From a virus: DNA of 10,204 nt. The stretch lies in the UHGV virus genome UHGV-1667404; one strand, 5' to 3'. Shown piece after piece: positions 2,116-8,955 of the stretch. The notes beneath the pieces are model-generated. The model worked only from the letters and a program-made list of their open reading frames with translations, was not told where the DNA came from and ran no database searches. A program made the translations under genes and the position numbers. Position 1 is the first letter of the stretch; the number at the start of each line of letters is the position of its first letter.

Positions 2116-2150
2116 CCCCAGTAGCACTGGCTGCTGGGGTGCGTTTTATT
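2116..2150 (+). terminator. Possible weak intrinsic terminator or hairpin downstream of trkG
   Basis: Inverted repeat CCCCAG (2116-2121) / CTGGGG (2134-2139) with nested CCAGT/ACTGG, followed by TGCGTTTTATT. The T-tract is short and offset from the stem, so confidence is low. Confidence 0.25.
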
Positions 2151-2166: not shown

Positions 2167-2958
2167 ATGAGCGAGAAATTAAAGATAGTCTATCGCCCAT
2201 TACAAGAATTGTCACCGTATGCGCACAACGCCAGGACGCACAGCCCTGAGCAGGTGGCACAACTGGTAGAAAGTATTAAGCAATTCGGCTGGACTAATCC
2301 GGTGCTGATTGACGAAAAGGGCGAAATTATTGCGGGTCACGGTCGTGTTATGGCGGCTGAAATGCTCAAAATGGATTCTGTTCCGGTCATTGTTCTGTCT
2401 GGCCTGACGGATGAGCAGAAAAAGGCGTACCGCCTGGCAGATAATCGCCTGCCGATGAATGCTGGCTGGGATGAAGATCTGTTGCGGATGGAGCTGTCGG
2501 ACCTAATCAATGCTGATTTTGATGTCTCCCTGACAGGCTTCATCCCGACAGAAATTGATGAACTGTTGACGGATGTTTTGCCCGGTACAGGAAATGAGGA
2601 GGAGCCGTATACGACGAAAATTGATACGCCTGTTTATGAGCCGTCGGGCGGTAAACCGGATATCAGTGAACTGTACGACGATACGAAAACTCAGGAGCTG
2701 ATCAGCCGGATACGTTCGGCGTCCCTTGAGCCTGATATTGAGAAATTCCTCCTGTGTGCGGCAGAACGTCACACGGTGTTTAATTTCAGCAGAATTGCGG
2801 ACTATTACGCTCACGCCCCCTCTGAAATTCAGTGTTTTTTCGAGGAGTCGGCGCTGGTGATCATTGATTATCAGCAGGCTATTGAAAATGGATTTGTCCG
2901 GATGACGCAGCGCATGGTGGAGATCATGCATGGTGGTGAGGAGGAGGAATATGCGTGA
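2167..2958 (+). CDS. ParB/Srx-like nuclease-domain protein (ParB N-terminal domain), phage accessory protein
   Basis: The N-terminus KIVYRPLQELSPYAHNARTHSPEQVAQLVESIKQFGWTNPVLIDEKGEIIAGHGRVMAAEMLKMDSVPVIVL follows the ParB N-terminal pattern (beta strand, NARxH-type box, G-rich helix, GxxR box in place of GERR). The C-terminal half is acidic with no motif I recognise. AAGG sits 5 nt upstream of ATG 2167. From memory the corresponding Rac gene in K-12 is the short remnant ynaK. Confidence 0.8.
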   Translation: MSEKLKIVYRPLQELSPYAHNARTHSPEQVAQLVESIKQFGWTNPVLIDEKGEIIAGHGRVMAAEMLKMDSVPVIVLSGLTDEQKKAYRLADNRLPMNAGWDEDLLRMELSDLINADFDVSLTGFIPTEIDELLTDVLPGTGNEEEPYTTKIDTPVYEPSGGKPDISELYDDTKTQELISRIRSASLEPDIEKFLLCAAERHTVFNFSRIADYYAHAPSEIQCFFEESALVIIDYQQAIENGFVRMTQRMVEIMHGGEEEEYA

Positions 2959-3883
2959 TGATTTTTGCGCCTTTATTCTGACTCACGGGCGACCGGACAA
3001 AGTTCTGACTTACCGGACGTTGCGTCGTGCTGGCTATACCGGGAAAATTTTTATCGTTGTTGATGATGAAGATAAGACACGGAATCAGTACATGGCTGAA
3101 TTTGGTGAACAGGTGCTGGTGTTTTCCAAAGCCGATATCGCCAGTCGTTTTGACGAAGCCGATAATTTCTGTGACCGCCGCTCAATTTTTTACGCCCGTA
3201 ATGCCTGTTTCGACCTGGCAAAACTGGTCGGGTGTAAATACTTCATTCAGCTCGATGATGATTATCACGAGTTCCAGTTTCGGGTGGATCGCAACTATGA
3301 CCAGGCCTATTTTCCGATAAGGAAACTGGATGCGATCCTTTCTGAAATGCTGGCGTACTACGAATCAATACCTGCTCTTTCCATCGCTATGTCGCAGGGC
3401 GGGGATTTTCTTGGTGACAATGGCGGCCATGCTTCGTGGGTGAAACGCAAGGCAATGAACAGCTTTATCTGTTCGGTTGATCGACCGTTCTCATTCATGG
3501 GGCGCATTAACGAGGATGTGAATACGTACACGAATCTCGGTCGCTGTGGTGAATTGTTTATGACGATCGGTGCTGTCCAGTTAGGGCAGAAACAGACGCA
3601 GAAAAACAGCGGCGGAATGACCGAGCTGTATCTGGATTCCGGAACCTACGTTAAAAGTTTTTACTCCGTCATGTATGCGCCGTCGTGCGTAAAAATCTCA
3701 CTGATGGGTGCCAGCCATAAACGCATTCACCATCAGGTCACCTGGAACAACGCTGCAGTAAAAATCCTTCACGAAAAATACAGGAAGAAGACACCCTGCA
3801 TATCAATGGGGGTGACAAATGATTCCGTATTCGAAAGTCGAGTCTCTGGCAGCGTGCCGGATGACTGCACAACAAATCGCTGA
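2951..3883 (+). CDS. Hypothetical protein with GT-A-like (nucleotide-diphospho-sugar transferase) N-terminal motifs; function unknown
   Basis: Strong RBS GAGGAGGAGG (2938-2947) directly upstream of ATG 2951; the start overlaps the ParB-like stop (ATGCGTGA), indicating translational coupling. N-terminus MRDDFCAFILTHGRPD...GKIFIVVDDEDK...KYFIQLDDDYHEF has the spacing of GT-A strand1 / DD / DxD motifs. No SAM-binding (FxGxG, DPPY) or P-loop motif, and no obvious TM segments. The family assignment is inference from motif spacing only. Confidence 0.6.
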   Translation: MRDDFCAFILTHGRPDKVLTYRTLRRAGYTGKIFIVVDDEDKTRNQYMAEFGEQVLVFSKADIASRFDEADNFCDRRSIFYARNACFDLAKLVGCKYFIQLDDDYHEFQFRVDRNYDQAYFPIRKLDAILSEMLAYYESIPALSIAMSQGGDFLGDNGGHASWVKRKAMNSFICSVDRPFSFMGRINEDVNTYTNLGRCGELFMTIGAVQLGQKQTQKNSGGMTELYLDSGTYVKSFYSVMYAPSCVKISLMGASHKRIHHQVTWNNAAVKILHEKYRKKTPCISMGVTNDSVFESRVSGSVPDDCTTNR

Positions 3884-4070
3884 CGTTCTGGATGTTGATC
3901 TGAACCGACTGAAAGAAAATCGGGAAGCAATGACAGATTTTTATGCGGCCATCCGTAAGGGCAGAGCGAAAGGTGAAGCCGAGTTACGAGCGGCATTGTT
4001 TAAGCTTGCCAGAAAAGGGGATGCCTTTGCTCTGCGCGAACTACTCAGGGTGGATAAAAATCAGGACTAA
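3819..4070 (+). CDS. Small HTH-containing protein (83 aa), possibly a packaging-associated DNA-binding protein
   Basis: ATG 3819 preceded by GGGGTGA. The product contains an HTH-like segment (MTAQQIADVLDVDLNRL) and a basic helical tail. It overlaps the 3' end of the upstream gene by 65 nt in another frame, and its stop at 4068-4070 lies 3 nt before the terS ATG. An internal ATG at 3861 is an alternative start. The overlap lowers confidence. Confidence 0.5.
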   Translation: MIPYSKVESLAACRMTAQQIADVLDVDLNRLKENREAMTDFYAAIRKGRAKGEAELRAALFKLARKGDAFALRELLRVDKNQD

Positions 4071-4073
4071 CTG

Positions 4074-5168
4074 ATGAGCAGACCGGACTGGGGGGCGTTG
4101 CAGCAGGAGTATATTGCTGAATACACCCGCTCCGGTATATCTCCGGTGGCATGGTGTGAAGCAAGGGGACTGAATTACGCAACAGCCCGTCGTTACATCA
4201 AAAAAACTCCGAAAAATGCGCAGACAGAAATGTGCAAAACTGCGCAAAAAAGTGCGCAGAAAAAATCTGCGCAGACTGCACAAAAGCGGAACGAAAAATC
4301 TCAGGAAAAAAAGCCAGTATTCGATGCGGGCCTGAATGAGGGCGACGCGGAGGAATTTTCGTTCTGTCCCGATGAATTCGGCATTTCTGACCAGCAGGCT
4401 AAGTTTGCGATGCTTGTTGCTCAGGGTAAAAAGCCGACAGAGGCGTACCGACTAGCCGGTTATGAGGGGCAAGGTGCGACAGCTAACAGCAACGCCAGTC
4501 GTATGCTTAGAAATGCCAGGGTTTTTCGCGCTATCAGCTACTTCCGCAATCAGTACCAGAAACGCTATACCGCAGACCTGGATTTACTAGTGAGTCAGTT
4601 GATGGCTATTGTCCTGGCCGACCCCAATCAGCTTGCACAATTTCGCCGTGTTAACTGCCGTTATTGCTGGGGCGAGAATCATCTCTACCAGTGGCGCGAT
4701 ATAGCAGAATTCGACAAGGCAGCGGCGCAGGCTTCCAGAGATGGCAAACCCGAACCGGAATATGGAGGCCTCGGCTTTGTTGATAACGCCATACCCAATC
4801 CGGACTGCCCGAAGTGCTGCGGTGAGGGAACGGGACAGCTTTATATGGCTGATACCACTCTGCTTGATGGGGATGCGCGGCAATTATATGCAGGGGCAAA
4901 ATTCGGAAAATTCGGCGTTGAGATCCTGCTGGAGGATAAGGCTGCCGCCCGGCGTGAATTGTTGCGTTTGTTTTCTGCTGGCGGGGCTTTATGTGCAGAT
5001 AAACGGCTACAGGAACTGGAAATTGAACGGCGCAGAATGGAAAACCAGAAGCTGCGCAAAGAGATCGAAACGGTGGAAGATAATGAACATCCCCAGCCTG
5101 TGGCGATCAATATTAATGTGGTTGATGCCAGAGTAAGGAGTGATGAAGATGATCTCTCCGACGCTTAA
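4074..5168 (+). CDS. terS: Terminase small subunit (P27/Terminase_2-like core) with N-terminal HTH, low-complexity linker and C-terminal Cys-rich extension
   Basis: AGGA at 4063-4066 sits 7 nt before ATG 4074. Residues ~105-160 (QQAKFAMLVAQGKKPTEAYRLAGYEGQGATANSNASRMLRNARVFRAISYFRNQ) match the P27-family TerS signature (F...G...eAy..AGY....A...asrLL.n..V...I). N-terminal HTH-like GISPVAWCEARGLNYATARRYIKK. C-terminal CRYC...CPKCC motif and a coiled-coil tail. Lies immediately upstream of, and overlaps, the large terminase gene. Confidence 0.8.
   Translation: MSRPDWGALQQEYIAEYTRSGISPVAWCEARGLNYATARRYIKKTPKNAQTEMCKTAQKSAQKKSAQTAQKRNEKSQEKKPVFDAGLNEGDAEEFSFCPDEFGISDQQAKFAMLVAQGKKPTEAYRLAGYEGQGATANSNASRMLRNARVFRAISYFRNQYQKRYTADLDLLVSQLMAIVLADPNQLAQFRRVNCRYCWGENHLYQWRDIAEFDKAAAQASRDGKPEPEYGGLGFVDNAIPNPDCPKCCGEGTGQLYMADTTLLDGDARQLYAGAKFGKFGVEILLEDKAAARRELLRLFSAGGALCADKRLQELEIERRRMENQKLRKEIETVEDNEHPQPVAININVVDARVRSDEDDLSDA
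4217..4282 (+). repeat. Array of six palindromic TGCGCA-type hexamers (TGCGCA x4, TGTGCA, TGCACA), each followed by an A-rich tract, spaced 9-15 bp; candidate pac / TerS-binding site inside terS
   Basis: Hexamers start at 4217, 4231, 4241, 4253, 4268 and 4277. The region encodes the low-complexity linker KNAQTEMCKTAQKSAQKKSAQTAQK, suggesting DNA-level constraint. Pac sites of P22- and SPP1-type phages lie in or next to terS. The repeat is seen directly; the function is inferred. Confidence 0.5.
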
Positions 5169-6450
5169 TGTGCCTCAGGCGCGATTTCTTTCAATGCCCC
5201 ATAAATTTAAAGCCTATATTGCTGGTTTTGGCTCGGGCAAAATATGGGTTGGGTGTGGCGGCATATGCAAGGGGATTTGGGAGCATCCAGGTATAAATCA
5301 GGGATATTTTGCGCCAACGTATCCCCAAATTCGCGATATTTTTTACCCTACAGTAGAAGAAGTTGCTGCTGACTGGGGATTGAACGTAAAAATTAATGAG
5401 GGAAATAAAGAGGTTCACTTTTATTACGGACGCCAGTATCGGGGAACCACTATCTGCAGATCGATGGAGAAGCCACAAACGATCGTCGGTTTCAAAATTG
5501 GTAATGCGTTGGTGGATGAACTGGACATTTTGCCGAAGGAAAAAGCCAGAACGGCGTGGCGCAAGATAATTGCACGTATGCGTTATAAGATTGATGGACT
5601 TCGCAACGGTATTGACGTTACAACCACGCCGGAAGGATTCAAATTTGTCTACGAGCAGTTTGTTAAAGCCGTGCGTGAAAAAACAGAGCTGGCCTCACTG
5701 TATGGTCTGGTGCAGGCATCTACTTTCGATAATGAAAAGAACCTGCCAGCAGATTACATTCCTTCGCTTCTTGAATCATACCCTCCAGAGCTGATTAAAG
5801 CCTATCTTCGAGGACAGTTTACTAACCTGACAAGTGGTACTGTTTACCATCAGTTTGACCGGAAACTGAATAATTGCGAAGAAGTGGAGCAGCCAGGGGA
5901 GCCGATTTATATTGGGATGGATTTTAACGTTGGAAAGATGGCGGGAATCGTCCATGTGCTGCGTTTGGGGCTTCCATGTGCGGTAACTGAAATCATCAAT
6001 GCCTACGATACGCCGGATATGATCCGCATCATTAAAGAACGCTTCTGGCTGTATGATGGGAATGATTACCGGAAAGTGAGGGAAATTTATATTTATCCAG
6101 ATGCTTCCGGGGATTCCAGAAAATCAAGTAACGCAAGTACGACGGATATAGCCCAGCTTAAGCAGGCTGGTTTTAACGTTGTGGTGAACAGCTCGAACCC
6201 GCCAGTAAAAGATCGCGTTAACTCAATGAATGCAATGTTCTGCAATGCCAATGGTGAGCGTCGCTATAAAGTTAATGTGAAGCGTTGCCCGTTATATGCC
6301 GAATCTCTGGAGCAACAGGTCTGGGATGAGAAGGGGGAGCCTGATAAAAAATCTGGCAATGATCACCCGAATGATGCCGGAGGTTATTTCATCGTTAAGC
6401 AATTCCCTATTGTCAAACCGACCGGAAGAGTCACATCACTTCGGATTTAA
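5143..6450 (+). CDS. terL: Terminase large subunit (ATPase + nuclease)
   Basis: N-terminal deviant Walker A YIAGFGSGKIWVGCGG, mid-protein LVDELDIL (Walker B-like), and a C-terminal RNaseH-like nuclease region (IYIGMDFNVGK ... IYPDASGD ... DHPNDAGGY). AGGAG at 5135-5139; possible starts are GTG 5140 (ORF track), ATG 5143 or ATG 5149. Overlaps the terS 3' end. Confidence 0.87.
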   Translation: MKMISPTLNVPQARFLSMPHKFKAYIAGFGSGKIWVGCGGICKGIWEHPGINQGYFAPTYPQIRDIFYPTVEEVAADWGLNVKINEGNKEVHFYYGRQYRGTTICRSMEKPQTIVGFKIGNALVDELDILPKEKARTAWRKIIARMRYKIDGLRNGIDVTTTPEGFKFVYEQFVKAVREKTELASLYGLVQASTFDNEKNLPADYIPSLLESYPPELIKAYLRGQFTNLTSGTVYHQFDRKLNNCEEVEQPGEPIYIGMDFNVGKMAGIVHVLRLGLPCAVTEIINAYDTPDMIRIIKERFWLYDGNDYRKVREIYIYPDASGDSRKSSNASTTDIAQLKQAGFNVVVNSSNPPVKDRVNSMNAMFCNANGERRYKVNVKRCPLYAESLEQQVWDEKGEPDKKSGNDHPNDAGGYFIVKQFPIVKPTGRVTSLRI

Positions 6451-6452
6451 TT

Positions 6453-7859
6453 ATGGCTGATATATCAACACCCAACCTCGACTATAACGATATGCTGGAG
6501 GCGTGGGATATTAACGACGCACTGATGGGCGGTACGCTTGAAATGCGCAGGCAGGGGGAAAATTATCTCCCAAAATGGCCTAACGAAGATGAAGACGCTT
6601 ATAAAAAACGCCTGTCTGTGGCTACGCTACTTCCTGTGTATGAAGAAAGCATCAAGCAAAATATTGGGCGCATATTTGCAGAGCCGACAGTATTGAGTGA
6701 GGAAACGCCGGCAAAAATCAGGGAATATGCAGAAAATATCGACATGGAGGGGAGCCGACTGGATGTGTGGGCGCAGCAATTTTTCAGCCTCGCATTTCAG
6801 TATGGTGTGGCACATGCGCTGGTGGACTATCCACGAACGGATATGAAAGAGATTCGTACAAAAGCCGATGAAAACGCGACCGGTGGTCGTCCGTACGTTA
6901 CGATGCTGAATCCACGCCAGGTTATTGGATGGAAATCGAAAGTTGAAAAAGGGAAAGTTGTTCTCACTGATTTGCGTATAAAAGAGGTCATCATTATTGA
7001 TGGTGATGATTTCGGGCAGAAGAAGGTGGAGCAGATCCGCCATATTATGCCCCGTCGAGTTGAAATTTATCGACGTAGCGAAGGCACTAATGGCGAATCT
7101 GTCTGGACGCTTCATGAGTCATGGAATACCAGCCGTGATGATATTCCTCTGGTAACACTGTACACGAAGAAAACAGGATTTATGCGTGGTACACCGCCAT
7201 TGCTTAATCTTGGCTTGCTGAATATCAAGCACTGGCAAAGCCAGAGCGAGCAGGACAATATTCTTCATGTTGCCCGCGTTCCATTGCTGGTGGCCTACGG
7301 GCTGGACAGGAATGAAGAACTGACGGTTGGTGCATCCACCGCTACGATTTTTGAGGACAGAACAAAAAATGGCCTCGAATATGTTGAACATAGTGGCGCA
7401 GCGATAGAATCTGGCGAAACATCACTTGAGAAGCTGGAAAATCAGATGCGTCATGCCGGCGCTAAACTTCTGCGTGCTGAAAATACATCCACCAAATCTG
7501 TTGATCAGACTAATGAAGAGCGAATGCAGGAAAACTCGCCGCTTTATACAATGGCGAACTCCCTCGAAGATGCCCTCGATAATATTCTCCAGATAATGGC
7601 GGAATGGATCGGAGAGAGTTGCGGTGGCAATGTGGATGTGCGCACTGAACTGGATGTATCTGCCCAGGTGTTTGACTCATCCTCCGCGCTGGCTGTTCAG
7701 TCATTGCGTCAGGGCGGTGATATACGTCAGATTGATGCGGTTCGGGTGTTGCAGGCGTTGAAATTTATCGATCAGGATTCCCGTCCAGAGGAAGTGATCG
7801 ATGAATTAAAAAATCAGAGTGTAATGCTGATGGAAATCAATGATGCAAACCGTGAATGA
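6453..7859 (+). CDS. Portal protein (probable; DUF4055-like family from memory)
   Basis: 468-aa ORF starting 2 nt after the terL stop and followed by a Mu-F-like gene, which is the canonical position of the portal gene. The size fits. No specific motif was verified, so the call rests on synteny and general character. Confidence 0.7.
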   Translation: MADISTPNLDYNDMLEAWDINDALMGGTLEMRRQGENYLPKWPNEDEDAYKKRLSVATLLPVYEESIKQNIGRIFAEPTVLSEETPAKIREYAENIDMEGSRLDVWAQQFFSLAFQYGVAHALVDYPRTDMKEIRTKADENATGGRPYVTMLNPRQVIGWKSKVEKGKVVLTDLRIKEVIIIDGDDFGQKKVEQIRHIMPRRVEIYRRSEGTNGESVWTLHESWNTSRDDIPLVTLYTKKTGFMRGTPPLLNLGLLNIKHWQSQSEQDNILHVARVPLLVAYGLDRNEELTVGASTATIFEDRTKNGLEYVEHSGAAIESGETSLEKLENQMRHAGAKLLRAENTSTKSVDQTNEERMQENSPLYTMANSLEDALDNILQIMAEWIGESCGGNVDVRTELDVSAQVFDSSSALAVQSLRQGGDIRQIDAVRVLQALKFIDQDSRPEEVIDELKNQSVMLMEINDANRE

Positions 7860-8955
7860 ACGGCTGCGTGATGAATCAATTGCTCATGCAGTCTGGATAT
7901 CCCGCTATAGCACTGGCGTGGCTGCCAGAATGGTGAAAATACTGAATGACAGCGATGCGGAACTTACTGCTCGCCTGCTGATAGCACTGGACAGCCTCGA
8001 TCCAGGTAATTTTACCGTTAAGCGCCTGGAGTCACTTCTGGCGAGCGTCAGAAAGGTTAACCGCACTGCTATTAACAGCATGTTTACCAGTCTCTCCGGA
8101 GAGCTGAACGAGCTGGCAATTTATGAGGCTGGTTATCAGTTAAGTCTGTTTGATTCTATGCTACCTGATTTTGTTGCTGATGTTCACCCTCTGGTTGGTA
8201 TCTCTCCTGATGCACTTTATGCCGCTGCAATGGCGCGACCATTCCAGGGACGACTGCTCAGTGAGTGGGCCTCAGATCTTGAGGCGGATCGGCTCAGACG
8301 CATAACAAATACAGTGCGTCAGGGTTTTTTGCTGGGGGATACCAATGAGCAGATCGCAAGAAAAATTCGGGGACATGTCAGTAAGGGATTTCAGGATGGT
8401 GCATTGCAGATGAGCCGGGCTAATGCGGCCAGCATTGCAAAAACAGCGGTTGGACATCTTGCTGCTACTGCCCGTGAGAGTTTTGCCAGCGCGAATAATG
8501 ATTTGATTAAGGGTAAGCAATGGTTATCAACGCTTGATAATCGTACTACGCCACAATGTCGAATCAGGGATCGCCTCAAATATACGCTGAATAATAAACC
8601 TGTAGGTCACAGCGTGCCTTATTTGCAGGGGCCGGGAAAAATTCATTTCTGCTGCCGCTCAACGGAAACGTTCATTCTGAAATCAGCGAAGGAACTGGGT
8701 ATTGATGTTCGCGATATTTCCCCGGCTGAGCGGGCCAGCATGGATGGCGTGGTGGCCGGAGATACAACCTACAGGGAATGGTTTTTGCGTCAGCCTTACA
8801 CCAGACAAAAACAGATTGTGGGGGAAACCCGAGCAAAGCTGATTCGGGATGGTGGTATGTCGCCAGATGAATTTTACACCGATAAAGGCGAATGGCTGAC
8901 GCTGAAGCAGCTCCGTGAGCGTGATGCACAGGTATTCAGAAAAGCAGGGATTTAA
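7840..8955 (+). CDS. Head morphogenesis protein, Phage Mu F / SPP1 gp7 family (minor head protein)
   Basis: Contains the characteristic Mu-F-like motif LSTLDNRTTPQCRIRDRL plus a downstream HFCCRS. Its start overlaps the portal stop by 20 nt. Position after the portal gene is typical. Confidence 0.82.
   Translation: MMQTVNERLRDESIAHAVWISRYSTGVAARMVKILNDSDAELTARLLIALDSLDPGNFTVKRLESLLASVRKVNRTAINSMFTSLSGELNELAIYEAGYQLSLFDSMLPDFVADVHPLVGISPDALYAAAMARPFQGRLLSEWASDLEADRLRRITNTVRQGFLLGDTNEQIARKIRGHVSKGFQDGALQMSRANAASIAKTAVGHLAATARESFASANNDLIKGKQWLSTLDNRTTPQCRIRDRLKYTLNNKPVGHSVPYLQGPGKIHFCCRSTETFILKSAKELGIDVRDISPAERASMDGVVAGDTTYREWFLRQPYTRQKQIVGETRAKLIRDGGMSPDEFYTDKGEWLTLKQLRERDAQVFRKAGI

Follow-up and report, generated by a model that had tools for sequence, protein, structure and literature searches.

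A translationally coupled ParB/Srx-fold protein and TAGT-family glycosyltransferase encoded beside the terminase genes of a Rac-like prophage

The locus

The window, i.e. the whole 10,204-nucleotide stretch that was analysed (UHGV virus genome UHGV-1667404), is E. coli Rac-like lambdoid prophage DNA. Its ORF listing contains an ORF at 2167–2958 and, downstream, a second one ending at 3883, and the gene pair that they constitute is carried by 889 of 5426 complete E. coli genomes. Upstream of the pair are Rz (129–434) and trkG (554–2029), the trkG insert being closed just 5′ of the pair by a terminator-like hairpin (2116–2149, plus strand) with a 10-bp stem and a T tract. The GC content of trkG is 32–40% in contrast to the 45–51% of the pair, whose composition is that of the phage core and unlike that of the insert. 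Directly 3′ of the pair is a packaging block (3861–5168, plus strand) matched by PHROG 309, PHROG 51 and Pfam Terminase_2. Here a small plus-strand ORF, starting at either 3819 or 3861 and ending at 4070, resembles part of a terminase small subunit, and the gene for the small subunit proper occupies 4074–5168 (plus strand). The genes for the terminase large subunit (5140–6450, plus strand; Pfam Terminase_6N and Terminase_6C) and the portal protein (6453–7859; DUF4055 in the PGAP annotation) come next. An earlier sequence-only reading of this DNA had placed the pair just 5′ of the terminase genes, and rightly; the order, pair and then packaging genes, repeats in related loci.

The gene junction

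Where does gene 2 start? Its longest reading begins at ATG 2930; in an alignment with 14 homologues the start that is conserved, MRDDFCAF, coincides with ATG 2951, in agreement with what had been proposed earlier. Gene 2 so defined (2951–3883, plus strand) encodes 310 amino acids, and its first 8 nt, ATGCGTGA (2951–2958), overlap the end of gene 1 (2167–2958, plus strand), which has an ATG start, a TGA stop at 2956–2958 and a 263-amino acid product. The translational-coupling junction (2938–2958, plus strand) includes, besides this overlap, the Shine-Dalgarno sequence GAGGAGGAGG (2938–2947), which ends 3 nt 5′ of the gene 2 ATG, and the GAG-rich codons for the acidic tail of the gene 1 product serve also as the ribosome-binding site of gene 2. 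Both the overlap and a strong ribosome-binding site inside the end of gene 1 had been pointed out in the earlier reading, and both are confirmed. Could such an arrangement be fortuitous? Among 87 distinct partner/glycosyltransferase junctions from unrelated hosts, the overlap is 8 nt in 47 and 11 nt in 27 (74 together), and in 83 the stop of the partner and the start of the glycosyltransferase overlap or are no more than 1 nt apart. Purine-rich junctions are also found in homologous pairs. The overlap is not due to chance.

Gene 2 encodes a TAGT-family glycosyltransferase

The product of gene 2 matches Pfam TAGT (PF20691) at 121.1 bits (7.6e-35), far above the curated gathering cut-off of 27.5 bits and over positions 4–205 of the 205 in the profile, and PHROG 842 at 1.1e-103. 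It belongs to TAGT and, as had been supposed from its motif spacing, is a GT-A transferase: the AF2 model (pTM 0.78) has a GT-A fold, for which Foldseek retrieves viral TAGT models from BFVD (E 1e-27, TM 0.78–0.86). In the PDB it retrieves GalNAc-T, GnT-I and SpsA at E about 1e-5, neighbours that are generic GT-A fold matches (TM 0.3–0.45), and a sequence search of the PDB with the protein gave no match. The catalytic signature consists of R14 (nt 2990–2992), D102–D104 (3254–3262) and E188–D189 (3512–3517), all on the plus strand. In 74 homologues R14, D102–D104 and D189 are invariant and E188 is present in at least 90%; the third position of the ED(Y/F) element is V190, not Y or F. Also in invariant columns are D38 and D41 of IVVDDEDK. 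The three motifs quoted in the sequence-only reading, FILTHGRPD with R14, IVVDDEDK, and LDDDY with D102–D104, are real. The final 25 or so amino acids are lineage-specific and disordered. Overall conservation is unusually high, with about 52% identity between distant hosts, which fits a substrate that is universal. Solubility, which had been claimed for this protein, extends to both: there is no hydrophobic segment in either, with Kyte-Doolittle values over 19 residues peaking at 1.25 and 1.08 as against 2.62 for TrkG.

Gene 1, ynaK, encodes a ParB/Srx-fold protein

In RefSeq/PGAP gene 1 is named ynaK and is annotated as a 258-nt ‘pseudogene’ fragment despite its intact 263-amino acid ORF, with the consequence that the pair has been hidden from gene-based surveys. 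In the literature ynaK was found to have incidental mentions only.

The encoded protein has, in order, a ParB/Srx N-domain, a conserved linker motif, a helical C-terminal module and an acidic tail (2167–2958 overall, plus strand). Its AF2 model is ordered for residues 1–134, disordered for 136–155 and helical for 160–243. The ordered N-terminal part (2167–2568, plus strand) is a putative nucleotide-binding domain of the ParB-CTPase fold with a helical extension. Profile match and fold agree in placing it in the ParB/Srx superfamily, as had been suggested earlier, with 28.9 bits for Pfam ParB_N (PF02195), and PHROG 620 is matched over the full length of the protein at 8.5e-91. Also as foreseen, the N-terminal module matches the ParB module of prophage DNA-methyltransferase fusions (PHROG 498 at 1e-50; PADLOC MTase_II at 2e-38). 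The motifs for nucleotide binding, Box I (S...G), Box II (GxxR) and Box III ((D/E)N), are present, and among 123 homologues there is no variation at six of their residues, S36, G41, G57, R60, D92 and N93; the predicted phosphate- and base-binding positions R23, S36, G41, R60 and N93 are retained. The hydrolysis or catalytic positions differ between lineages, being GHGR (here at nt 2335–2346, exactly where the earlier reading had it, as was the case for the DDD codons of gene 2), GERR, GNMR or GNQR. Profile searching, in which ParB_N alone was found, and the AF2 model revealed neither a helix-turn-helix or other DNA-binding domain nor a nuclease motif.

The linker motif, Y-T-x-K-I-x-x-P-x-Y-E (residues 148–158; 2608–2640, plus strand), is in the predicted disordered linker, and its pLDDT in the model is below 50. 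Y148 and Y157 are invariant across phyla and K151 and P155 are nearly so; stand-alone C-module proteins, too, carry the motif at their N-terminus. The helical C-terminal module itself (residues 160–243; 2644–2895, plus strand) matches no family in Pfam, NCBIfam or PADLOC, and no TAGT fusion is present among the top 150 C-module proteins. The disordered tail (residues 244–263; 2896–2955, plus strand) has the acidic end GGEEEEYA, and D/E-rich tails also terminate YnaK homologues.

Pairing across hosts, and what accompanies it

In a collection with one genome per species the TAGT gene is directly 3′ of a ynaK homologue in all 60 informative loci, and a ynaK homologue is directly upstream of the TAGT gene in all 32 of the viral loci examined; look-ups in the reverse direction, from YnaK homologues, again find TAGT adjoining. 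The hosts are from many bacterial phyla, both Gram-negative and Gram-positive, and from the archaea, with Lactobacillus phages c5 and phi jlb1 and the haloarchaeal virus HHTV-2 as examples. The pairing is not lineage-specific, and the possibility, allowed for in the sequence-only reading, that the two genes are never linked outside this prophage lineage is thereby disposed of. While the pair is just 5′ of terminase in most loci, and in c5 adjoins the cos site, the terminases concerned are of at least four unrelated families.

Which part of YnaK is the constant companion? The divergence of TAGT runs parallel to that of the C-module (r 0.915 overall, 0.44 among distant pairs), but not to that of the ParB domain (r −0.03 among distant pairs). 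In some lineages the ParB domain is absent and the C-module/TAGT pair is kept. The universal partner of TAGT is the C-terminal module. The ParB-less pairs are between genes for PolA, primase-helicase or 5′–3′ exonuclease, and in three loci a DnaN-type beta sliding clamp gene follows. In some loci there is additionally a second TAGT, a GT2, or a UDP-glucose dehydrogenase together with an epimerase/dehydratase.

No TET/JBP, thymidylate-synthase-like or other hydroxymethyl precursor enzyme is encoded in the window or the whole prophage, or in the complete genomes of c5 (31.8 kb) and phi jlb1 (38.3 kb), the unassigned ORFs of which are short. The 25 commonest flanking families shown include neither TET/JBP nor ThyA-like ones, the flank scan covering in most loci three ORFs of at least 100 amino acids per side. 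The prophage has no alpha- or beta-glucosyltransferase that would supply glucosyl-hmC, and parA is present neither in it nor among the families flanking the pair. In the genomes and flanks so covered neither a hydroxymethylase nor a dioxygenase goes with the pair, and for that reason its acceptor would not be 5hmC or 5hmU of phage origin.

Function of the pair

The reading to which we incline, with slightly more belief than doubt, is that the pair is expressed late and glycosylates DNA, the ParB-like protein serving the enzyme as activator or tether, in analogy with the ParB-dependent thymine dioxygenases considered below. The two genes would specify a single two-protein enzyme, made late alongside the packaging machinery. 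The gene 2 product would act as a Leloir-type GT-A enzyme of the TAGT/JGT lineage, characterised phage and kinetoplastid members of which transfer sugars onto DNA; D102–D104 would bind UDP-sugar and a divalent metal, with R14 and E188–D189 also being used. The C-terminal module of YnaK, comprising Tyr-rich linker motif and helical domain, would hold the transferase in a physical complex, and the ParB-CTPase-fold N-domain could be an NTP-binding activator, or a tether to DNA, through which the transferase becomes able to act on duplex phage DNA. This proposed role of the N-domain is modelled on the action of ParB176 for its thymine dioxygenase, and the same domain presumably has a like role in the prophage methyltransferase fusions. 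What results would be phage DNA bearing sugars, added before packaging or in the course of it and probably by a route independent of any known hydroxymethyl-base precursor, and this DNA would escape restriction or other nucleic-acid-targeting defences. Of the three functions offered in the sequence-only reading, DNA modification, anti-restriction and defence, we infer one or other of the first two. The third was not sustained: PADLOC has no match for TAGT or the C-module, and its match for YnaK is just to the ParB-like N-terminus of a methyltransferase model.

In favour of DNA glycosylation are the family, fold and signature of TAGT, the strict pairing with its overlapping junction, the co-divergence with the C-module, the N-domain shared with methyltransferase fusions, the likeness in architecture to validated activators of phage DNA dioxygenases, the siting of ParB-less pairs in replication modules, the additional TAGT, GT2 or UDP-glucose dehydrogenase genes of some loci, the high conservation of TAGT and the phage-core composition of the pair. 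There are considerations on the other side. In canonical DNA a hydroxyl acceptor is wanting, and all the TAGT/JGT relatives that we know to be characterised depend on 5hmC, 5hmU or sugar that these already bear. Taken with the lack of a precursor enzyme in the genomes and flanks surveyed, this counts against DNA glycosylation. Further, with a pI of 4.5 YnaK is acidic over its whole length, and no DNA-binding domain is predicted in it, so that any contact with DNA must come from TAGT (pI 8.0). The authors of a 2023 preprint regarded glycosyltransferase contigs without dioxygenase- or ThyS-type neighbours as less obviously DNA-modifying (bioRxiv 10.1101/2023.12.21.572611). A bolder form of the proposal, which we put forward tentatively and doubt more than we believe, is that the ParB-partnered TAGT clade puts sugar straight onto canonical, non-hydroxymethylated DNA, with the backbone, or a nitrogen or carbon of the base, as the site of attachment. 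The enzyme would be delivered by an NTP switch or clamp of ParB type, for which the replicative beta clamp would stand in where a lineage has no ParB domain. We know of no description of such chemistry.

Might the acceptor instead be protein, either the Tyr, Thr or Lys of YnaK's own YTxKIxxPxYEP or a packaging or virion protein from the late operon? That would circumvent the want of an acceptor hydroxyl in canonical DNA, the invariant Y148 and Y157 are in a segment predicted to be disordered, and the terminase and portal genes adjoin the pair. However, the terminases downstream are of unrelated families, which makes a conserved packaging-protein target unlikely, and the ParB-less variants are among genes for DNA polymerase, helicase and sliding clamp, not structural genes. 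The GT-A structural neighbours include glycogenin, which glucosylates itself, and the peptide GalNAc-transferases, but at the low TM values given above these are generic; GREB1, which is of the TAGT family, is a protein O-GlcNAc transferase. With the N-domain of YnaK being the module that is fused to DNA methyltransferases, a protein acceptor seems to us unlikely, though it is the best of the alternatives.

A less probable candidate for the acceptor is RNA, a nucleotide or a nucleotide-derived immune signal, glycosylated as counter-defence. The ParB/Srx domain would then be an NTP-binding or phosphotransfer module, as in the serine kinase SerK and sulfiredoxin, and not a tether. The acidity of YnaK would suit this, as any universal substrate would suit the high conservation of TAGT, and the second-best PDB neighbour of TAGT is AvpGT, a transferase crystallised with the nucleoside Ara-A. 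Yet the TAGT family provides no precedent, the genomic context is DNA replication and packaging, an essential catalytic step is hard to reconcile with a ParB domain that is dispensable in some lineages, and the hydrolysis or catalytic positions of that domain vary from lineage to lineage.

Is it conceivable that an ordinary ParB/5mYOX/glycosyltransferase pathway operates, with 5hmU or 5hmC coming from an oxygenase, of phage or host, so divergent that the first enzyme was missed? Glycosyltransferase, ParB and terminase are the domains most frequently found with phage 5mYOX genes, and thousands of 5mYOX-like contigs have no TET/JBP Pfam match (PMC13229309). The short reach of the flank scan in most loci also leaves room for it. 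Against this, no candidate is present in the complete c5 and phi jlb1 genomes or in the Rac-like prophage, the families expected are not among the commonest flanking ones shown, and the published ParB-dependent dioxygenases go with kinases and amino-acid transferases rather than glycosyltransferases. We think it improbable. Least credible of all is that YnaK is a pac- or cos-site or terminase helper, a nuclease or DNA-organising factor, with the glycosyltransferase as an unrelated passenger: the location 5′ of terminase and beside cos in c5, the frequent ParB-like ‘nuclease’ annotations at that position and the proof from trkG that the slot takes inserted genes are outweighed by strict pairing, overlap across phyla and co-divergence, which exclude a passenger relationship, by the diversity of the terminases and the occurrences in replication modules away from them, and by the lack in YnaK of a nuclease motif or DNA-binding domain.

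Several other candidates were rejected. Simple TET/JBP-linked glycosylation of hmC or hmU would require enzymes (dioxygenase, thymidylate-synthase-like enzyme, alpha- or beta-glucosyltransferase) of which the window, prophage, complete carrier genomes and flanks have none. Plasmid-type partition (ParABS) lacks parA, a helix-turn-helix domain and a parS context, and a defence system has no PADLOC support. Sugar-capping of terminase-made DNA ends does not accord with the presence of the pair in cos phages that must ligate those ends (c5 and loci with GpA-type terminase) and in replication modules, nor does TarP- or Gtr-like modification of cell-surface glycan accord with two proteins that have no membrane segments and with hosts that are Gram-negative, Gram-positive and archaeal.

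Significance

Of 753 glycosyltransferase-encoding phage genomes, 288 carry a ‘solitary’ TAGT of undefined function (PMC13216743), and about 65% of roughly 25,000 glycosyltransferase contigs have no 5mYOX or ThyS neighbour (bioRxiv 10.1101/2023.12.21.572611). Part of this unexplained set now gains a defined shape, a TAGT clade each member of which here has a YnaK-type partner, and the clade is placed in a tractable host, as an inducible E. coli prophage. ParB-like activation of phage DNA-modifying enzymes may thereby be extended from dioxygenases to a second enzyme class, with the suggestion of a modular logic in which ParB domain and beta clamp are alternative DNA tethers. Should DNA be the substrate, the absent precursor step implies new DNA chemistry, which would matter for restriction evasion, for artefacts in the sequencing of prophage-derived DNA and for tools for enzymatic DNA labelling. 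If, further, sugar were put directly on canonical DNA, there would be a hidden two-gene hypermodification in about one-sixth of complete E. coli genomes and in viruses of many phyla and of haloarchaea. Were the substrate protein, glycosylation of the GREB1 type would for the first time have a counterpart in a prokaryotic virus.

Comparison with known systems

Human GREB1 (PMC7968844) shares its glycosyltransferase domain family with gene 2, and close homologues of the latter are called ‘GREB1-related protein’ in UniRef. However, GREB1 is eukaryotic, is a multidomain protein of 1949 amino acids, has the oestrogen receptor ER-alpha as its target and is without a ParB partner. Equally, YnaK differs from the canonical ParB, KorB and PadC clamps. 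It has no helix-turn-helix, no parA and no recognisable canonical dimerisation domain, its hydrolysis residues are replaced (Q by N21 and E by H58), it is acidic, and its score against TIGR00180, 38.5, is below the cut-off of 58.45.

The TAGT family includes the T2/T6 beta-glucosyl-HMC-alpha-glucosyltransferase, and the base-J glucosyltransferase JGT is related; gene 2 has in common with them the Pfam family, the GT-A fold and R...DDD...ED. The T-even enzymes add to a glucose that 5hmC already bears, and the phages concerned synthesise hmdCTP and encode an alpha- or beta-glucosyltransferase. In contrast, the gene 2 clade has neither hmdCTP synthesis nor an alpha- or beta-glucosyltransferase and always has a YnaK-type partner. 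It is also far from T2/T6: tblastn with gene 2 gave no match in a T2/T6-type phage at E≤0.01, and the best T4-like matches, in Aeromonas phages, have only about 23% identity. For these reasons the PHROG 842 label, ‘beta-glucosyl-HMC-alpha-glucosyltransferase’, over-specifies function. The R...DDD...ED signature has been given for JGT-like phage DNA glycosyltransferases (bioRxiv 10.1101/2023.12.21.572611). A different parallel is with the T4 alpha-glucosyltransferase, which works with the replisome (PMC13216743). Its coupling to DNA-tracking machinery resembles the siting of ParB-less pairs beside PolA and the beta sliding clamp, though it is of GT-B fold and uses 5hmC, and the clamp link of the pair is a gene-neighbourhood inference from three loci.

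Closer to YnaK are the ParB_N-DNA methyltransferase fusions (PHROG 498, PADLOC MTase_II), with the same N-terminal ParB module. There it is covalently joined to the methyltransferase, whereas in YnaK an adaptor module takes the place of the enzyme, and the latter, of another class, is a separate, translationally coupled protein.

Closest are the ParB-dependent phage thymine dioxygenases, 5mYOX176/ParB176, of O'Toole et al. (PNAS 2026; PMC13229309), in which phage ParB-like proteins without a DNA-binding domain were validated experimentally as activators of DNA dioxygenases. According to the same paper, Iyer et al. (2013) had found ParB homologues in hypermodification-related gene clusters. Mutation of the NTP-binding residues of ParB176 did not do away with activation (PMC13229309), and a clamp mechanism is therefore unproven even in this closest precedent. 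The partner of YnaK is a glycosyltransferase and not an Fe/2OG dioxygenase, of which there is none here. While the earlier reading held that neither protein could be assigned to a characterised system, gene 2 is now assigned to TAGT, and YnaK, by its architecture, may be placed in the class of DNA-binding-domain-less ParB-like activators of phage DNA-modifying enzymes (PMC13229309). ParB176 works with a cognate DNA-modifying enzyme; YnaK and TAGT are adjacent, coupled and co-divergent, and TAGT would, by analogy, depend on YnaK. Terminase and glycosyltransferase genes often adjoin ParB176-type systems, as they do the YnaK pair. In both ParB176 and YnaK a disordered linker connects the nucleotide-binding domain to a C-terminal domain. 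Both are without a DNA-binding domain and are encoded beside the partner enzyme, and their N-x-R...S...R patterns are similar, with N14, R16, S29 and R56 of ParB176 having as counterparts N21, R23, S36 and R60 of YnaK.

The pair and its surroundings

The window, 10.2 kb long, is from an Escherichia coli Rac-like lambdoid prophage and represents its late region. Many E. coli chromosomes carry the interval of interest at 100% identity; a match is present in 1580 of 5426 complete E. coli genomes, and in 889 of the 5426 at least 80% of it is matched. Gene order is Rz (129-434), trkG (554-2029), the two genes considered here, a small ORF (3819 or 3861 to 4070), the genes for the terminase small subunit, TerS (4074-5168), and large subunit (5140-6450), portal (6453-7859) and then head genes. 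A 61-aa Rz1-like ORF (190-375) is embedded out of frame in Rz, as is usual for an Rz/Rz1 pair, and its N-terminus resembles a lipoprotein signal. The gene trkG (region 554-2149), for a TrkH-family potassium transporter, separates the lysis genes from ynaK; it is a low-GC insert (32-40%, versus 45-51% for the pair and ~48% around the insert) closed by a strong terminator-like hairpin with a 10-bp stem (2116-2139), and looks like a classic host-benefit gene inserted into the late operon. The base composition of the pair is that of the phage core and, as a search directly 5′ of it also gave no promoter-like site, the pair can be considered part of the late transcript; Q-type antitermination reads through such terminators in lambdoid phages. 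The small ORF before TerS is conserved in every enterobacterial locus, and what it matches is no more than an interior stretch (positions 145-218) of a small-terminase PHROG, phrog_309. TerS of this phage is itself unusually long (364 aa); phages of this group may have a split or two-part small terminase.

The first gene, ynaK, runs from ATG 2167 to TGA 2956-2958, as the sequence-only reading had it, and encodes 263 aa. In RefSeq/PGAP only 258 nt of it are annotated, as a pseudogene fragment (‘missing C-terminus’; 20001-20258 of surveyed locus L001), with some 525 nt left unannotated. Since the ORF is intact, with full-length homologues across phyla, we infer that the pseudogene call probably arose artefactually from the K-12 reference gene, which is truncated; the fragment annotation conceals the pair from gene-based surveys. 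A mechanical ORF call starts the second gene at 2930, and the conserved start is the ATG at 2951 originally proposed, from which (MRDDFCAF) 14 homologues align. The 8-nt overlap with ynaK, ATGCGTGA, and the ribosome-binding tract within the end of ynaK, GAGGAGGAGG at 2938-2947, can both be read directly. At its other end the E. coli-lineage protein, of 310 aa, exceeds its homologues (284-298 aa) by some 20-25 aa. This additional C-terminal tail (within 3790-3883) shows no conservation, is disordered in the model and shares 23-65 nt with the next ORF (3819-4070); a change at the gene boundary, specific to the lineage, may have created it by read-through.

A glycosyltransferase and its partner

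The suspicion that the second product is a GT-A-like transferase is borne out by profile and structure alike. Its score against Pfam TAGT (TET-associated glycosyltransferase, PF20691) is 121 bits, the cut-off being 27.5, and it matches PHROG 842 at 1e-103. Its AlphaFold model, built with 74 homologues, has GT-A topology (pTM 0.78). The PDB structural neighbours of the model are GT-A enzymes, among them GalNAc-transferases, GnT-I, SpsA and AvpGT, the crystal structure of the last containing the nucleoside Ara-A. From viruses, its neighbours are proteins annotated as TAGT (TM at most 0.86) and, at a greater distance, the ‘beta-glucosyl-HMC-alpha-glucosyltransferase’ of a T4-like phage. R14, D102-D104 and D189 are invariant and E188 is present in at least 90%, so giving the same R...DDD...ED signature as in phage DNA glycosyltransferases resembling JGT, the base-J glucosyltransferase (bioRxiv 10.1101/2023.12.21.572611). 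The DDD codons (3254-3262), and the GHGR codons of ynaK (2335-2346), both singled out earlier for mutation, fall on invariant columns, and the predicted solubility agrees with the lack of a membrane-like segment in either protein. Searched by tblastn against 50,697 phage genomes, TAGT gave no T2/T6-type match at E≤0.01, and identity to T4-like Aeromonas phages was only ~23%; its clade is remote from the characterised T2/T6 enzyme.

The AF2 model of YnaK shows an ordered N-domain extended by helices (aa 1-134), a linker (136-155) and a tail that are both disordered, and between them a helical C-terminal domain (160-243); the tail ends in acidic residues, and there is no helix-turn-helix domain. 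Over residues 1-144 YnaK has a very strong match to the N-terminal part of ParB-methyltransferase fusions from prophages (PHROG 498 at 1e-50; PADLOC MTase_II at 2e-38). Canonical ParB phosphate- and base-binding residues are kept, S36, G41, R60 and N93 being invariant and R23 present in at least 90%, whereas the hydrolysis positions are replaced (Q by N21, E by H58). The universally conserved part of TAGT partners is what is here called the C-module: a linear motif, YTxKIxxPxYEP, in which Y148 and Y157 are invariant, and a helical domain with invariant L195, R201, A211, Y214, E226, I232, D234 and A238. A search of 1.84 billion clustered proteins gave 1193 representatives; in nearly all of the 150 matches listed the module is C-terminal, most of these proteins being ~250-300 aa, and Pfam, NCBIfam and PADLOC hold no family for it. 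Pairwise identities of TAGT correlate with those of the C-module at r = 0.915 (0.44 for pairs below 70% TAGT identity) and with those of the ParB domain at r = 0.77 (-0.03 for such pairs). As the C-module tracks TAGT divergence and, among distant pairs, the ParB domain does not, the C-module is likely a TAGT-binding adaptor, to which the ParB domain is, to judge from these comparisons, a more freely exchanged add-on.

Pairing across hosts and its variants

Is the linkage peculiar to this prophage lineage? A TAGT profile search of a one-genome-per-species collection yielded 62 loci, from Proteobacteria, Bacteroidota, Clostridia, Veillonella, Bacillota plasmids, Planctomycetota, Acidobacteriota, Saccharibacteria, Kiritimatiellae and one archaeal MAG, with TAGT identities of 39-59% for those that are non-enterobacterial. 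A YnaK homologue is directly upstream in 60, and the remaining two contigs start inside the TAGT gene. The same holds for all 32 loci examined in viral contigs, and in the reciprocal search from YnaK homologues the next gene was again TAGT. Among cultured viruses the pair is in the Lactobacillus delbrueckii phages c5, LL-Ku, phiLdb, PMBT4 and Ld17, L. gasseri phage phi jlb1, Nocardia phage NTR1, 191-196-kb Vibrio phages, Porphyromonas phages and the haloarchaeal virus HHTV-2. The partner stop and TAGT start overlap or are at most 1 nt apart in 83 of 87 distinct junctions (by 8 nt in 47 and by 11 nt in 27), the purine-rich TAGT ribosome-binding site doubling as coding sequence for the D/E-rich tail of the partner.

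Terminase and portal genes are 3′ of the pair in most loci that retain the ParB domain, and replication and recombination genes are upstream. The terminases are of unrelated families: Terminase_6N (16 ORFs), Terminase_3 (10), GpA-type (4), TerL_ATPase (2) and T7-type RNaseH-like (7, possibly overlapping the other counts). In cos-type c5 the genome opens with the pair as its first two genes (within 1-1713 of L146). The ParB-like gene begins 79 nt past the annotated cos site, so that the pair adjoins the packaging initiation site as in pac-type phages; in phi jlb1 it comes after the late activator. Seven loci encode the C-module alone (~133 aa), and in the five with informative flanks the pair is inside replication modules. 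The order in L105 is PolA, a second TAGT, C-module, TAGT and beta sliding clamp (5114-6193); in L108, PolA, C-module, TAGT and clamp (6871-7959); in L136, a truncated full-length-type YnaK, second TAGT, C-module, TAGT, two small ORFs and clamp (3860-4951); in L102, primase-helicase, C-module, TAGT and SNF2 helicase; and in L140, 5′-3′ exonuclease, C-module, TAGT, UDP-glucose dehydrogenase and epimerase/dehydratase. All three DnaN-type clamps in the survey are thus in loci whose TAGT-adjacent partner lacks a ParB domain, and these three suggest that ParB domain and clamp may be alternative DNA tethers.

Several loci have extra sugar-pathway or transferase genes (L140 6844-9101; L147 6288-7343; L105 2970-3842; L136 571-2001; L143 5178-6008), the kinds being UDP-glucose dehydrogenase with NAD-dependent epimerase/dehydratase, a GT2-family transferase and a second divergent TAGT paralogue, which hints at tailored sugar donors or multi-sugar glycans. 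Immediately 3′ of TAGT and ahead of the terminase genes in two Firmicutes loci is a 319-aa ORF (L135 6840-7796; L143 6860-7816), that of L135 matching Radical_SAM, of which the survey has two members; its product could modify the sugar or prepare the acceptor. On a Mu-like phage contig a divergent ArdC-like antirestriction gene (ArdcN plus PolyVal metallopeptidase domain; L149 6949-7842, L150 386-1279) is immediately 5′ of the pair.

What is glycosylated?

The observation behind the sequence-only reading is confirmed, and its interpretation as a DNA-modification or anti-restriction cassette is supported in kind. The most economical reading, to which we incline by a little over even chances, is a late-expressed two-subunit glycosyltransferase of DNA. 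TAGT would be the catalytic subunit and the C-module the adaptor, with the NTP-binding ParB domain activating or tethering TAGT on duplex DNA. DNA as substrate is argued for by the known chemistry of the TAGT family, the sharing of its ParB module with methyltransferase fusions, the published precedent of ParB with a dioxygenase, the ParB-less variants among replication genes and clamps, and the unusual conservation of TAGT across hosts. Against it are the lack of an available acceptor hydroxyl, the acidity of YnaK (pI 4.5) with no DNA-binding domain, and the activity retained by nucleotide-binding mutants of ParB176, the activator in that precedent (PMC13229309). A further contrary point is that the TAGT-family member GREB1 glycosylates a protein. 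Protein glycosylation, possibly on the partner’s own invariant tyrosines, has a minor share of the probability; the replication-module and clamp settings argue instead for DNA. An RNA, nucleotide or small-molecule target is improbable given the same settings. Classical glycosylation of hydroxymethylated bases with a hidden precursor enzyme we consider slightly less probable again: no TET/JBP dioxygenase, thymidylate-synthase-type hydroxymethylase or alpha/beta-GT was found in the window, the 41-kb prophage region, the complete c5 and phi jlb1 genomes or the 25 commonest flanking families listed, so that the usual acceptors of TAGT enzymes are not supplied. A packaging accessory with a passenger gene, though it would suit the terminase neighbours, is very improbable beside so constant a pairing.

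Relation to known systems

One subclass of the thymine dioxygenases of phages depends on a cognate ParB-like protein, specifically on double-stranded DNA (O’Toole et al., PNAS 2026, PMC13229309), and that protein has the same architecture as YnaK. Its authors propose, by analogy with KorB-KorA, that ParB stabilises the dioxygenase on DNA, report ParB, GT and terminase as the commonest domains beside phage 5mYOX genes, and trace to Iyer et al. (2013) the hypothesis of ParB homologues steering modification machinery to particular loci (PMC13229309). ParB-like proteins and terminases were also among the neighbours in a 2023 preprint on phage glycosyltransferases, which left aside those GT contigs (~65%) that have neither 5mYOX nor ThyS as a neighbour (bioRxiv 10.1101/2023.12.21.572611), and solitary TAGT homologues of undefined function were reported in 288 of 753 phage genomes (2026 NAR paper, PMC13216743). 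A 2025 survey of the ParB-CTPase fold mentions neither glycosyltransferases nor YnaK, and our literature search found no paper characterising a ParB-TAGT pair. The obligate pairing of ParB-C-module protein and TAGT, its breadth across bacteria and archaeal viruses, and its independence from any hydroxymethyl-base pathway are undescribed in the literature searched. Already known are the two protein families and the principle that ParB can assist DNA modification, under which the pair would fall.
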